6,138 bases of DNA, taken from the IMG/VR virus record IMGVR_UViG_2619619129_000001. The stretch is one strand, 5' to 3'. Under the pieces are notes generated by a model. The model was not told where the DNA came from and did not search any database. It worked only from the letters and a program-made list of their open reading frames with translations. Position 1 is the stretch's first letter. Each line of letters begins with the position of its first letter. Below, piece by piece: positions 1 through 6,077 of this stretch. This DNA comes from a virus (lineage: Duplodnaviria > Heunggongvirae > Uroviricota > Caudoviricetes). Position numbers and translations under genes: made by a program.

Positions 1-30
1 AGTGTATGATGGTGTTTTTGAGGTGCTCCA

Positions 31-306
31 GTGGCTTCTGTTTCTATCAGCTGTCCCTCCTGTTCAGCTACTGACGGGGTGGTGCGTAACGGCAAAAGCA
101 CTGCCGGACATCAGCGCTATCTCTGCTCTCACTGCCGTAAAACATGGCAACTGCAGTTCACTTACACCGCTTCTCAACCCGGTACGCACCAGAAAATCAT
201 TGATATGGCCATGAATGGCGTTGGATGCCGGGCAACTGCCCGCATTATGGGCGTTGGCCTCAACACGATTTTACGTCACTTAAAAAACTCAGGCCGCAGT
301 CGGTAA
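31..306 (+). CDS. insA: IS1 InsA transposition inhibitor / N-terminal part of the InsAB' transposase (GTG start)
   Basis: 91-aa translation [24 protein letters not shown]...LKNSGRSR, recognised as IS1 InsA; zinc-finger-like CPSC...CSHC motif. Confidence 0.9.
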
Positions 307-728
307 CCTCGCGCATACAGCCGGGCAGTGACGTCATCGTCTGCGCGGAAATGGACGAACAGTGGGGCTATGTCGGGGCTAAATCGCGCCAGCGCTGGCT
401 GTTTTACGCGTATGACAGGCTCCGGAAGACGGTTGTTGCGCACGTATTCGGTGAACGCACTATGGCGACGCTGGGGCGTCTTATGAGCCTGCTGTCACCC
501 TTTGACGTGGTGATATGGATGACGGATGGCTGGCCACTGTATGAATCCCGCCTGAAGGGAAAGCTGCACGTAATCAGCAAGCGATATACGCAGCGAATTG
601 AGCGGCATAACCTGAATCTGAGGCAGCACCTGGCACGGCTGGGACGGAAGTCGCTGTCGTTCTCAAAATCGGTGGAGCTGCATGACAAAGTCATCGGGCA
701 TTATCTGAACATAAAACACTATCAATAA
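225..728 (+). CDS. insB: IS1 InsB reading frame (expressed mainly as InsAB' fusion after a -1 frameshift)
   Basis: 167-aa frame [16 protein letters not shown]...HYLNIKHYQ, recognised as IS1 InsB; lies in the -1 frame relative to insA and overlaps its 3' end. Confidence 0.85.
282..288 (+). other. Programmed -1 ribosomal frameshift slippery site A AAA AAC joining insA to insB
   Basis: AAAAAAC heptamer at 282-288, in the insA frame as L-K-N (tta aaa aac), within the insA/insB overlap; established IS1 mechanism. Confidence 0.7.
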
Positions 729-1173
729 GTTGGAGTCATTACCCTATTTACTAAGAAGGGCTGAAGCATGGATACAATTATTACATGGATGGGAGATCGT
801 CTGTTGGGGGGACACAAAAATCCGATCTGCGGCAGATGGCGATCACTGGATTAACTTCCGCGATTTGTTCAACAATTTTGTACACTGAAAAATTAAAACA
901 TGGTGAGCCTATTAACCCAAACGAAGAAGAAAAACTTTATAGGCTTTGGTATGAAGGAAACGCTTGAAAGAATAAAGCACAATTAAAACCTTTGATTTGC
1001 GATAATCAACTTGCCATAATTAAGTAATCGAAGCCTGAACAACTCCGGTGACTTCTGCGCTAAACGGGGACGTTTATGCGCACATACAATCCAAACTCTC
1101 TTCTCCCTTCACAGATGCAGAGATGCACCTGCGATTTTTTGCATCCAGCGTTTGACCTCTGCGGAGGTGAAGC

Positions 1174-2578: not shown

Positions 2579-2663
2579 AGTCAGAGATAACAATCAACTA
2601 ATACTGTTTTGTTGATTTTTGCTTGTAATTGGCGTTCTGGTCTGATTTTTGTGGAGTAAGTTG

Positions 2664-3047
2664 ATGCGTGATATTCAGATGGTTCTTGAGCGTTGGGGAG
2701 CGTGGGCGGCTAATAATCATGAAGATGTGACCTGGTCGTCCATTGCCGCCGGTTTTAAGGGATTAATTACTTCAAAAGTAAAATCTCGCCCGCAATGTTG
2801 TGACGATGACGCGATGATTATTTGCGGGTGCATGGCCCGTCTGAAAAAGAACAACAGCGATTTGCACGATTTATTAGTAGATTATTATGTAGTCGGTATG
2901 ACATTCATGTCACTGGCAGGTAAGCATTGCTGCTCTGATGGTTATATCGGGAAAAGGTTACAGAAGGCTGAGGGCATAATTGAAGGGATGTTAATGGCAT
3001 TAGATATCCGGTTAGAGATGGATATCGTTGTTAATAACTCTAATTAA
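2664..3047 (+). CDS. quuD: Late-gene antiterminator Q (127 aa), Cys-rich (CCDDD...CGC...CC)
   Basis: ATG at 2664 with GGAG 8 nt upstream; translation [22 protein letters not shown]... matches the DLP12 Q protein; the track ORF starts 5 codons earlier at a TTG. Confidence 0.85.
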
Positions 3048-3074
3048 TATGCCAATTATTTACTAAAACTTATT

Positions 3075-3105
3075 AAAAATGGGGCGTTGAGACGCCCCCA
3101 AAAAT
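3075..3105 (-). terminator. Candidate intrinsic terminator for minus-strand (nmpC) transcription: GGGGCG-ttgaga-CGCCCC hairpin at 3081-3098 flanked by A-runs on plus (T-runs on minus)
   Basis: Perfect 6-bp GC-rich stem, 6-nt loop; on the minus strand it is followed by ATTTTTAAT. Confidence 0.4.
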
Positions 3106-3186
3106 AAAGGGTAATATATAACAGAAGGTTTATATAGTTAGAAGCAAGGTTGTGCTTCTAAAGGAAGTGGCTTGAGGGAGCCACTT

Positions 3187-3228
3187 ATATGTTGGGGAGG
3201 CAACGCCTCCCGCAACATATCTTTTTCG
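3187..3228 (+). terminator. Candidate rho-independent terminator for plus-strand transcription: ATATGTTGGGGAGGC-aac-GCCTCCC(g)CAACATAT stem followed by CTTTTTCG
   Basis: About 15-bp stem with one bulge, 3-nt loop, then a 5-T run at 3222-3226; sits 8 bp from the nmpC stop codon. Confidence 0.55.
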
Positions 3229-3236
3229 TAATCAGA

Positions 3237-4334
3237 TTAGAACTGGTAAACCAGACCTACAGCAACGATGTCATCAGTGCTTACACCGAGTGCTTTAGTG
3301 AAGTCATTTTTGTCAAGCAGGTTGATTTTGTAATCAACGAAAGTAGACATATTTTTGTTGAAGTAATAGGTTGCACCTACATCAACATATTTGACTAAGT
3401 CCTGATCGCCCCATACTCCAAGATCCTTACCTTTAGATTGCAGGTAAGCAACGGACGGACGCAGACCGAAATCGAACTGATATTGTGCAACAGCTTCGAA
3501 GTTTTGGGCTTTATTAGCAACGAAGTGATCAGCAAATACAGTCATATTCTGGGTTTCAGAATAGGTAGTGGCCAGGTAAATGTTGTTAGCGTCATATTTC
3601 AGACCTGCGGCCCAAACTTCTGCATTTTTACCGGAAGCAAATACTTCAGGAAGAACTTTCCCTGCATTAACTTGAGTGTCGGTACGATCAGATTTCGCAT
3701 AAGTTGCACCGATACCGAATCCTTCGTATTCATAGGTAGCAGAGAAACCGAAGCCATCACCGTTACCTTCAGTGTAGTTATCGAAATCGCTACGATCGTT
3801 TTTGCCTTGGTACTGAGCAGCAAAGTTCAGACCATCAACCAGACCAAAGAAGTCGTTGTTACGATAGGTTGCAACACCAGTTGCACGTTGAGTCATGAAC
3901 ACGTCGGTTTGAGTCCAAGTGTCACCACCGAATTCTGGCAGGACGTCAGTCCACGCACCGATGTCGTATGCTACACCGTAGTTACGGCCGTAATCGATGG
4001 AGCCGTAGTCACCGAATTTCAGGCCAGCGAAGGCAAGACGGGTTTTATCTTTGGAGGAACCTTGAGATTCAGCGCGGTTGCCTTTGAATTCATATTCCCA
4101 CTGACCGAAACCAGTCAGTTGATCGTTGATTTGGGTTTCACCTTTGAAGCCAAGACGGGCATAAGTAGTATCACCATCATCTGCATCATTAGAGGAGAAG
4201 TAGTGCTTAGCATTAACTTTCCCGTACAGATCCAGCTTGTTACTGTCTTTATTATAAATTTCAGCTGCCTGAGCAGACATCGCCATCAGTACTGATGCAG
4301 CTACAGCAGAAATTGCCACTGTTAATTTTTTCAT
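3237..4334 (-). CDS. nmpC: Intact OmpC/OmpF-family outer-membrane porin (NmpC / Lc-like), 365 aa with signal peptide
   Basis: Signal peptide [23 protein letters not shown] then AEIYNKD...; PEFGG loop-3 motif; C-terminal ...GLVYQF ending in Phe; start chosen at the ATG at 4334 (AAGGG Shine-Dalgarno upstream) rather than the track's upstream ATG at 4394. Confidence 0.9.
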
Positions 4335-4480
4335 CGTGAGCCCTTTTTTTGAACTATTATTAAAAAATGATGTCACTGCGCGATAAATATTCATCTAATC
4401 AATGTGATTATTTCAAGATGTAAGTTTTGGTTTCTCGTTTGATTTGTGAAGTAGATCTCTATTTTTATCTGAACTTTTTT
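4335..4480 (-). promoter_or_regulatory. Probable nmpC promoter and 5' UTR region (exact -35/-10 not resolved)
   Basis: AT-rich sequence directly upstream of the porin start on the minus strand; porin genes typically carry 80-110-nt leaders. Positional inference only. Confidence 0.35.
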
Positions 4481-4703
4481 CTATCGAATCCTATTCATGG
4501 CTCTTGGCTGAATAAAAATAAATCTATTAGCCAATTTATATTAACGGCTGTTATTTATAAGTGCTCTATAATTTGAAGGTTCAATTTAAACCGGCTAAAA
4601 ATAACACTGGAAATTATTTGTTGGTTATTTGTTGAGATTTGCTTATGTATTTGTAGTGGTGTTTTCAATACTCGGTAGCATTCTCGCAAATATCATTTAG
4701 TGG

Positions 4704-4731
4704 TTTACGTACGTAAAAAATTGGTTATGCT
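4704..4731 (+). promoter_or_regulatory. Candidate sigma70-type promoter (TTTACG -16 nt- TATGCT) overlapping a 14-bp perfect palindrome; possible late promoter or leader promoter for the lysis cassette
   Basis: -35-like TTTACG 4704-4709, -10-like TATGCT 4726-4731; the spacer contains AAAATTGG, which resembles the phage lambda PR' spacer as I remember it; terminator about 30 bp downstream. Confidence 0.3.
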
Positions 4732-4761
4732 GTTAAGAGTGGTTACTTCGTCACACAGCTT

Positions 4762-4794
4762 AAACCCGCCGTCGAGCGGGTTTTTCCATTTTTT
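4762..4794 (+). terminator. Strong rho-independent terminator on plus strand: AAACCCGC-cgtcga-GCGGGTTT followed by TTCCATTTTTT
   Basis: 8-bp stem, 6-nt loop, immediately followed by a T-rich tract; about 110 bp upstream of the holin start. tR'-like position. Confidence 0.7.
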
Positions 4795-4906
4795 GAGTCT
4801 CGATATTAGCTGATAACCCAATACCTGAGTTATTCACTGACTCCGAGTCTGTTACGTTTCGTAGTATTCCCTCAATTTACACCCGCTTTGTCTGCGAGGT
4901 GGGGTT

Positions 4907-5122
4907 ATGAAATCCATGGATAAGTTAACAACGGGTGTCGCCTATGGCACCTCAGCAGGTAGTGCCGGGTACTGGTTTTTACAGCTGCTAGATAAAGTCA
5001 CGCCCTCACAGTGGGCGGCAATTGGAGTGCTGGGTAGCCTGGTATTTGGCCTGCTGACGTACCTGACAAACCTTTATTTCAAGATTAAAGAAGATAAGCG
5101 CAAGGCTGCGAGAGGTGGATAA
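4907..5122 (+). CDS. essD: Phage 21-type class II holin (pinholin), 71 aa, dual-start motif MKSM
   Basis: Translation [29 protein letters not shown]...[11 protein letters not shown] resembles S21; GAGGTGGGG Shine-Dalgarno; two in-frame Met codons (4907 and 4916); stop overlaps the rrrD start (TAATG). Confidence 0.9.
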
Positions 5123-5619
5123 TGTCGCCATCATTACGCAAGGCTGTAGCAGCTGCTATTGGTGGTGGGGCTGTTGCCATAGCGTCTGTGCTCATCACTG
5201 GTCCGAGTGGTGACGATGGTCTGGAAGGTGTCAGCTACATACCATATAAAGATATCGTTGGCGTATGGACTGTATGTCACGGGCATACAGGAAAAGACAT
5301 CATTCCCGGTAAAACGTATACCGAAGCAGAATGCAAAGCCCTCCTGAATAAAGACCTTGCCACTGTCGCCAGACAAATTAACCCGTACATCAAAGTCGAT
5401 ATACCGGAAACAACGCGCGGCGCTCTTTACTCGTTCGTCTACAACGTGGGTGCTGGCAATTTCAGAATATCGACGCTTCTTCGCAAAATAAACCAGGGTG
5501 ATATCAAAGGCGCATGTGATCAGCTACGTCGCTGGACATATGCTGGCGGTAAGCAATGGAAAGGTCTCATGACTCGTCGTGAGATTGAGCGTGAAATCTG
5601 TTTGTGGGGTAAGCAATGA
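5122..5619 (+). CDS. rrrD: SAR (signal-anchor-release) endolysin, T4-lysozyme-like muramidase, 165 aa
   Basis: N-terminal Gly/Ala-rich weakly hydrophobic segment [20 protein letters not shown], then a lysozyme-like domain (LEGVSY...[15 protein letters not shown]); resembles phage 21 R. Confidence 0.9.
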
Positions 5620-6077
5620 ACAGAGTAACCGCGATTATCTCCGCTCTGGTTATCTGCATCATCGTCTGCCTGTCATGGGCTGTTAATCATTACCGTGATA
5701 ACGCCATTACCTACAAAGCCCAGCGCGACAAAAATGCCAGAGAACTGAAGCTGGCGAACGCGGCAATTACTGACATGCAGATGCGCCAGCGTGATGTTGC
5801 TGCACTGGATGAAAAATACACGAAGGAGTTAGCTAATGCGAAAGCTGAAAATGATGCTCTGCGTGATGATGTTGCCGCTGGTCGTCGTCGGTTGCACATC
5901 AAAGCAGTCTGTCAGTCAGTGCGTGAAGCCACCACCGCCTCCGGCGTGGATAATGCAGCCTCCCCCCGACTGGCAGACACCGCTGAACGGGATTATTTCA
6001 CCCTCAGAGAGAGGCTGATCACTATGCAAAAACAACTGGAAGGAACCCAGAAGTATATTAATGAGCAGTGCAGATAG
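5616..6077 (+). CDS. rzpD: Rz-type inner-membrane spanin (i-spanin), 153 aa
   Basis: N-terminal TM segment [18 protein letters not shown] followed by a charged, coiled-coil-like region; start overlaps the rrrD stop (ATGA). Confidence 0.9.
5836..6018 (+). CDS. rzoD: Rz1-type outer-membrane lipoprotein spanin (o-spanin), 60 aa, fully embedded in rzpD in the +1 frame
   Basis: Lipobox LVVVGC (Cys20) after a signal-like N-terminus, Pro-rich mature part (PPPPPAW...PPPDW); classic embedded Rz1 arrangement. Confidence 0.85.

Follow-up and report, generated by a model that had tools for sequence, protein, structure and literature searches.

Evidence that the Q-dependent late transcription unit of a DLP12/PA-2-type prophage begins downstream of its porin gene

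The Late-Control Region and Its Genes

The stretch of DNA analysed here (the window), 6,138 nt of the IMG/VR virus record IMGVR_UViG_2619619129_000001, is the late-control region of a DLP12/PA-2-type lambdoid prophage of Escherichia coli, as identified by its open reading frame (ORF) listing, Pfam and megablast. It encodes QuuD, an antiterminator of the recognised Q family PF06530, which is the Q21/Q933W family (10.1101/651190), upstream of and on the same strand as the late (lysis) genes for holin, endolysin and spanins at 4907-6077; between them lies an intact porin gene on the opposite strand. The original prediction, made from the sequence alone, had described this order and a separation of 1.86 kb, and both hold, as 1,859 nt lie between the Q stop and the holin ATG. 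It had left two architectures for the late promoter PR', with its qut site, and the terminator tR': either these lie in the gap between Q and porin (3048-3236), and antiterminated late RNA runs antisense through the entire porin to the holin, or a promoter-like element and a terminator beyond the porin are the real PR' and tR'. Homology, public start-site data and comparative genomics all lend strong support to the second architecture, and the Q-dependent late transcription unit very probably begins downstream of the porin, with PR', start and tR' at 4704-4797 (Table 1).

This module is widespread. Many E. coli chromosomes carry 2600-5150 at 99.5-99.7% identity (megablast), and at least 2,396 of 5,426 complete E. 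coli genomes, together with 36 phage records, contain at least 80% of that segment. One of these phages is 434B, whose late region has been swapped for K-12 DLP12 DNA; it is viable with its Q, late promoter and lysis region replaced by a DLP12 segment that includes nmpC::IS5 (PMC9119081). This viability would be indirect evidence of Q-dependent read-through in the module. In K-12 the porin gene (nmpC) is interrupted by the insertion sequence (IS) IS5, whereas the copy in the window is intact; the nmpC-essD spacers of the two differ at two bases, neither within the promoter-terminator segment. A scan of the whole window against Rfam at E<=1 gave no hits.

Table 1. Features of the late-control region in window coordinates, with promoter-relative positions in parentheses.
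Feature	Position	Strand	Evidence and remarks
IS1-like ORFs (InsA/InsB)	1-744		left end, upstream of ybcN
ybcN, ninE, ybcO, rusA, ylcG	between IS1-like ORFs and quuD		ybcO PF07102; rusA PF05866
quuD, Q antiterminator	2664-3047	+	Pfam PF06530, E 3.5e-53
Hairpin h1	3081-3098	-	terminator scan; -13.9 kcal/mol; then AUUUUUAAU on the minus strand
Hairpin h2	3138-3161		-10.4 kcal/mol
Hairpin h3	3165-3187		-13.5 kcal/mol
Hairpin h4	3187-3220 (with tail to 3228)	+	15 pairs, one bulge; -21.3 kcal/mol; then CUUUUUCG on the plus strand
nmpC/lc-type outer-membrane porin, intact; cargo (moron)	4334..3237	-	Pfam PF00267, E 4.7e-157; matches PA-2 lc record J02580
AT-rich porin regulatory region, part of the cargo	4335-4700		28-34% G+C; holds the 4367 start and a sigma-E-like motif
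PR' promoter	4704-4731	+	-35 TTTACG 4704-4709, 16-bp spacer, -10 TATGCT 4726-4731; column for column with pR' of 933W and VT1-Sakai
Perfect 14-bp dyad TTTACGTACGTAAA, candidate Q-binding element	4704-4717 (-34..-21)	+	overlaps the -35 hexamer
PR' transcription start, A	4738	+	K-12 Cappable-seq; homologous position in Stx-phage dRNA-seq
Leader AGTGGTTACTTCGYCACAC	4738-4757 (+1..+20)	+	nearly invariant; 55 distinct leaders
tR' intrinsic terminator	4762-4797	+	hairpin 4762-4783 (+25..+46), then U5-CCA-U6; found by scan
essD, P21-type holin	4907-5122	+	Pfam (PF04971, PF00959 and PF03245 for the late/lysis genes); 434B and K-12 annotation
rrrD, endolysin	5122-5619	+	Pfam; 434B and K-12 annotation
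rzpD with embedded rzoD (spanins)	5616-6077; 5836-6018	+	Pfam; 434B and K-12 annotation

The PR' Promoter, Start Site and Terminator

The promoter-like element proposed upstream of the holin gene is present and homologous to annotated pR' promoters, although by consensus alone it does not exceed chance: a promoter scan of the window returned 3 sites against 5.6 in shuffles, that is, fewer than in shuffled sequence. Its credibility therefore rests on homology and start-site data. When 4640-4906 was compared with phage records by sensitive blastn, 356 records matched; only the 36 porin phages span the full query, and several hundred other phage records match 4703-4785 only. In those examined, 933W, VT1-Sakai and 24B, the matching DNA sits at the 3' end of Q, where promoter, qut and terminator are annotated. 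Alignment with 933W and VT1-Sakai equates their pR' with 4704-4731, their 'qut' with 4745-4752 and their first terminator with 4762-4784.

The start site is located by two public data sets. In the Sakai Shiga toxin (Stx) phages, the combination of differential RNA sequencing (dRNA-seq) and Term-seq puts 258 nt between the PR' start and the 3' end mapped downstream, at a second terminator (PMC7547250). Located through this start-to-3'-end distance rather than through absolute coordinates, as the genome versions differ, the start falls on the G-A-G of TAAGAG, homologous to window 4737-4739. For K-12 MG1655, Cappable-seq lists two plus-strand starts in the nmpC-essD spacer, at 576081 and 576452 of U00096.2 (PMC4782308 supplement). 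K-12 coordinates in U00096.3 equal the window position plus 572,491. Between the two U00096 versions we take the offset to be 777 nt, which converts the starts to window 4367 and 4738, the latter coinciding exactly with the predicted PR' +1; this offset is consistent, since each start then lands on an A seven bases past a -10-like hexamer.

The leader that follows contains a single -10-like hexamer, TACTTC at 4744-4749 (+7..+12), which from its sequence is a possible sigma-dependent pause element. Beyond the leader, the strong terminator that the original prediction had placed at 4762-4794 was recovered by both terminator scan and folding as a hairpin plus U tract, with an 8-bp G+C-rich stem of -12.0 kcal/mol followed by UUUUUCCAUUUUUU; it is predicted to yield a terminated RNA of ~52-55 nt. 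The hairpin is conserved, and the few lineages that lack it have an unrelated G+C hairpin and U tract at about the same place, which suggests that selection acts on termination and not on the sequence itself.

Other readings of the leader were considered. A phage 21-type pause element (TAAGCT at +2) was rejected, as the similar TAAGAG here covers -4..+2. In the 1986 PA-2 record J02580 a 21-mer corresponding to window 4738-4758 on the other strand, that is, to +1..+21 of the PR' leader, is labelled a CRP-binding site, and 4738-4758 does hold an inverted repeat, GTGG...(C/T)CAC. This reading was also rejected: there is one half-site only, and its TGTGA is lost in most relatives.

Q Clades and a Candidate Q-Binding Dyad

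To place the module in a wider context, the invariant PR' core TAAGAGTGGTTACNTNGNCAC, which occurs once in the window, was scanned across IMG/VR. It was found at 120 loci, 101 of them with enough upstream DNA; many are near-identical prophages, and the counts are thus not independent. A PF06530 Q gene lies upstream on the same strand in all 101, and one further locus shows an apparent Q-gene end at its edge, ~3.9 kb upstream, through a weak 16-residue match (E 0.28). The Q stop lies 5-40 nt from the core in 25 loci, and in the other 76 it is 626-2461 nt away, indicating that Q and PR' are commonly separated in this family. The premise that Q is followed directly by PR', which the original prediction had taken as canonical, is thus not the rule for PF06530 Q proteins, as 0.6-2.5 kb of cargo intervenes in 76 of the 101 loci.

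QuuD itself is 78% identical to Q933W over 126 residues and resembles the Q21 structures 6P18 and 6JNX, a distant match. Homology to 933W stops after an LEMD motif of Q (~3025) and picks up again at ~4701, so the cargo cassette supplies the last 7 quuD codons; the C-terminal tails of Q proteins vary between clades. Among the clades, residues 61-105, which are helix-turn-helix-like, diverge somewhat more than the N-terminal 60, which is a weak indication.

Upstream of the -10 hexamer, the PR' sequences fall into six types, each with a dyad centred at -27.5 or -28: TTTACGnnCGTAAA (this window and 933W), GCGGTCCGC, GCGTACGC, TGTTATAACA, TGGAATTCCA and ATTCGTTACGAAT. These six promoter types correspond one to one, with zero mixing, to six clades of 56 distinct Q proteins, and the correspondence is independent of whether Q is adjacent or kilobases away and of which cargo intervenes. 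For the member of each type that fits best, centre-specific shuffles gave P values of 2e-4 to 1.4e-2; in the T1 variant PhiR40_1 the dyad is imperfect, only 6 of its 7 positions being paired. The exact dyad occurs once in the window. It is the likeliest candidate for the Q-binding element, with co-inheritance with the Q clade as a possible alternative source of the match; taken as that element, it would make PR' at 4704-4738 the cognate target of quuD. A search confined to one literature library found no paper linking 933W with a Q-binding element.

A dyad-like palindrome, GTTACGGCCGTAAT, with 2 mismatches, lies at 3981-3994 within the porin gene and is probably a chance occurrence, as 6 of 200 shuffles give at least 2 matches.

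The Gap Between Q and Porin

The other site considered for PR' is the gap at 3048-3236. As the original prediction had stated, it is rich in hairpins: folding far exceeds that of shuffles on both strands (z -6.2 and -7.3), and four G+C-rich hairpins of -10 to -21 kcal/mol are found there. Across 30 variants the h1 loop is variable and its stem invariant, and h1 probably terminates the porin mRNA. Hairpin h4, which was not listed by the simple terminator scan, would probably stop unmodified polymerase leaving Q, while h2 and h3 are extra stable stem-loops between the convergent genes. The porin and Q-side transcripts, being convergent, would overlap by ~140 nt. No informative compensatory pairs were found in the 30 variants, which are 93-99% alike and change mainly in loops.

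A PR', qut and tR' within this gap would fit the canonical arrangement of lambda, 21 and 933W, where PR' adjoins Q, and the abundance of hairpins, with 3187-3220 plus U5 oriented to the plus strand, would suit such a placement. Against it, the consensus scan shows no plus-strand promoter-like site in 3048-3236, and the K-12 Cappable-seq table lists no plus-strand start between 573406 and 575093, the interval covering the gap. Moreover, 3040-3240 matches only the porin-carrying phage records (36 of 36), which indicates that the segment travels with the porin and not with Q. The gap contains neither a copy of the Q-clade-specific dyad nor the PR' core, and resembles no PR', whereas close relatives of QuuD in phages without the porin carry a homologue of 4704-4787 instead. 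Late transcription starting in the gap and running antisense through the porin is therefore exceedingly improbable.

A promoter-like sequence, TTTGCA-16-TATTAT, lies on the sense strand inside quuD at 2861-2891, and the K-12 Cappable-seq start 573406 (U00096.2, signal 9.3) corresponds to ~2891, also within quuD. A transcript from ~2891 would enter the group of hairpins in the gap, where it would overlap the porin mRNA at its 3' end.

Upstream Promoters in the Porin Control Region

Several observations weigh against assigning late transcription to PR' at 4704-4731. TTTACG-16-TATGCT matches 8 of 12 consensus positions and falls under the scan threshold, which makes it a weak promoter by consensus. 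The Cappable-seq signal at 4738 is only 1.7, against 90 at 4367, though a transcript of ~55 nt may be under-sampled by this method. A clear sigma-dependent pause element was not found in the initial transcribed region: TACTTC is without the terminal T of its 933W counterpart TACATT, and its last position is C, T or A in relatives. The Term-seq supplement of Adams et al. 2021 has no entries at the K-12 tR' and PR' coordinates. In the Stx phages the mapped 3' end lies at +258, past the homologous hairpin, so that this first hairpin is evidently not the main stop there, and the terminator scan finds no second terminator in the window. Finally, a sigma-E-dependent, Q-responsive promoter, essDp, lying farther upstream than PR', was reportedly described by Rueggeberg et al. 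in 2015.

The essDp work (Rueggeberg et al. 2013, 2015) reportedly deals with the intergenic region that holds PR' and with the Q protein considered here. Pasqua et al. 2021, citing Rueggeberg 2015, cloned a regulatory fragment of the lysis operon given as '-121 to +650'; their primers correspond to window 4262 to ~5032, which by primer arithmetic puts the essDp +1 at ~4383, 355 bp upstream of the PR' homologue and within the porin cassette. A sigma-E-like motif, TGAACTA (4349-4355)-N17-TCACT (4373-4377), can be read there, and the strong plus-strand start of K-12, with a signal of 90, is A4367, seven bases after a -10 TATTAT at 4355-4360. These features would favour the view, put forward in the DLP12 literature, that Q acts on this upstream region, through the sigma-E start at ~4383, the sigma-70 start at 4367 or both, and that 4704-4738 is incidental. 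The cloned fragment, however, also carries PR' and tR', so the Q response of the reporter does not locate the Q target. The essDp region belongs to the porin cassette and is missing from porin-less relatives whose Q proteins are 77-84% identical and which retain the PR' homologue; no Q-clade-specific element was found in it. The K-12 Cappable-seq table has no start at 4383, sigma-E not having been induced in that experiment, and the RpoE genomic SELEX (systematic evolution of ligands by exponential enrichment) list has no peak in the nmpC-essD spacer. Known Q proteins, moreover, load solely on sigma-70 polymerase paused at their own promoter. A Q target in the essDp region is thus very unlikely, though less remote than one in the Q-porin gap. 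The 4367 start and essDp are additional upstream promoters in the porin regulatory region, which the original prediction had not seen, and transcripts from either must still traverse tR'.

With PR' retained as the cognate target of QuuD, its activity in this prophage can still be questioned. It may be largely a fossil here, with Q poorly expressed and the lysis genes fed by the 4367 or sigma-E promoter through partial read-through of tR'. The ~50-fold stronger signal of the 4367 start in K-12 and the passage of polymerase through the homologous Stx-phage hairpin to +258 are in keeping with this, as are the IS1 upstream of ybcN in the window and the terminator-weakening G-to-T change found among related loci. 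To our knowledge DLP12 has no early-region promoters, which would point the same way. On the other side, the window retains an intact terminator, dyad and Q reading frame, and the same module drives the viable phage 434B. A largely fossil PR' is accordingly a serious possibility, but not the one we favour.

The G-to-T change affects the equivalent of window 4778, in the 3' arm of tR' (GAGCGGG to GAGCTGG), in 16 of the 120 PR'-core loci, of DLP12 type. With it, the +1..+62 fold is predicted at the weaker value of -8.4 rather than -14.1 kcal/mol; the hairpin in the window is intact. The variant may be a leaky-terminator allele of resident prophages.

RNA from 4367 would open with AUGAUG and could encode a leaderless 18-codon ORF (4367-4423). 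This start diverges from the porin start codon, the two lying 33 nt apart.

The Porin Cassette and the Q-PR' Junction

The segment ~3025-4700 reads as a reverse-oriented cargo cassette (moron) consisting of the Q tail, the convergent terminators, the porin and its AT-rich control region. Its boundaries are sharp, as 933W homology ends at ~3025 and restarts at ~4701; it is missing from the homologous relatives 933W and 1720a-02, in which Q abuts PR', and it has its own minus-strand terminator at 3098-3081. The same gene with the same flanks is found as the lc porin moron of PA-2 and as nmpC in the qsr' region of DLP12, J02580 being 99% identical over 3040-3240.

No minus-strand consensus promoter reached the scan threshold in 4335-4700. 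In the PA-2 record, the equivalent of window 4442-4462 is marked as a CRP site, and a genomic-SELEX peak of RpoS holoenzyme lies near the equivalent of window 4318. Upstream of the porin, 4350-4650 is extremely AT-rich, with 28% G+C.

The interval between Q and the PR' core was surveyed for cargo in the IMG/VR loci L092-L210. In 35 of 37 architecture classes, the largest ORF found there runs on the opposite strand. Besides this porin, the cargo includes Kiwa KwaB (L101), PDC-S20 (L110), an HNH/PDC-M68A-type protein (L138) and PDC-M53A (L199). Lipoprotein-like ORFs (L134, L151) and an alpha/beta-hydrolase-like ORF (L131) were also seen at this position. From its gene content the junction looks like a cargo and defence hotspot. 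We suggest, at somewhat less than even confidence, that the QuuD/Q933W branch of the Q21 family may recognise the -27.5-centred dyad, which overlaps the -35 hexamer, through two Q protomers loaded head to head, in contrast to the tandem arrangement solved for Q21. The Q-PR' junction would then be a dedicated hotspot in which lambdoid phages keep cargo that reads in reverse and is expressed in the lysogen (porin, lipoproteins, Kiwa, PDC-S20 and other defence genes), since Q can act from a distance in trans and late-operon transcription does not reach this slot. Both the dyad/Q-clade correspondence and the hotspot emerged as by-products of the architecture question.

At the far left of the window, the IS1-like element is followed by ~430 nt (745-1173) without an assigned feature, and this left end is unlike that of K-12 DLP12. 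An IS promoter reading outward could influence expression of the rusA-quuD genes.

Comparison with Known Systems

The closest characterised relatives are the PR'-tR' regions of 933W, Sp5 and VT1-Sakai, the source of the StxS small RNA, which are 77-78% identical to the window over 83 nt. Common to the Stx phages and the window are the -35 hexamer TTTACG, the palindrome TTTACGnnCGTAAA, the leader core TAAGAGTGGTTAC and the hairpin stem, in addition to a 78% identical Q and a start at the homologous base. In 933W, however, the promoter overlaps the 3' end of Q, whereas here a 1.66-kb reverse-oriented porin cassette lies in between; and in the Stx phages the second terminator at +258 is followed by tRNAs and stx, whereas here the holin lies 110 nt past a single terminator.

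The original prediction had called for alignment to phages 21 and 82. The PR' alignment covered phage 21, phage 82 being left out as its Q belongs to a different family from QuuD, and it revealed a similar architecture with no sequence homology. In both phage 21 and the window a PF06530 Q goes together with a site that precedes the -10 hexamer, and a short leader runs into a terminator within ~50 nt, the phage 21 terminator lying at +3..+50; both continue into the same type of lysis genes (S21-type holin and SAR endolysin). Their DNA shows no similarity, and the Q proteins are just 27% identical. Q21 binds a direct repeat, ATTGAGCA AATGAGCA, at -27..-12, whereas the candidate here is an inverted repeat at -34..-21; the phage 21 pause element is TAAGCT at +2..+7.

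The PR'-qut-tR' region of lambda, which gives rise to the 6S RNA, follows the same logic of a constitutive promoter, early termination and Q loading at a promoter-proximal pause, with its terminator at +194. Its Q belongs to an unrelated family (PF03589), and its sequence is unrelated. The layout described here is thus a common and essentially known one: the prophage is a member of the Q933W-type late cassettes and not a case of a new mechanism.

A Model for Late Transcription and Its Implications

These comparisons suggest a model in which PR' would initiate at A4738 and, without Q, polymerase would halt at tR' (hairpin 4762-4783 and U tract to ~4797), releasing a ~52-55-nt RNA. QuuD, encoded 1.66 kb upstream, would work in trans by binding within the promoter, most probably at the dyad (4704-4717), and board polymerase paused in the conserved leader. 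The Q-modified polymerase would then pass tR' into essD-rrrD-rzpD/rzoD and, in a complete phage, on to the head and tail genes, and the porin cassette in the Q-PR' junction would escape late-operon transcription. Binding of Q to the dyad, the pause site and Q-dependent read-through are the parts of this model that we infer for this prophage from sequence comparison.

An antisense RNA across the porin, which the original prediction had offered as the outcome that distinguishes the two architectures, does not separate them cleanly. By inference from lambda, early transcription that is modified by N and reads through Q would, in a complete phage, probably traverse the porin in antisense in both models, so the discriminator holds for late transcription only.

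The model positions the late promoter, its start and its terminator for one of the commonest E. coli prophage modules. K-12 DLP12 carries this module, and PR', the start and tR' are unannotated there. It also suggests that reporter work crediting a sigma-E promoter with Q control used fragments that also bear the canonical PR' and tR'. Q-driven late transcription would not run antisense through the porin, and the dyads provide candidate Q-binding sites for six Q clades, including that of the clinically relevant Q933W, which controls Shiga toxin expression.

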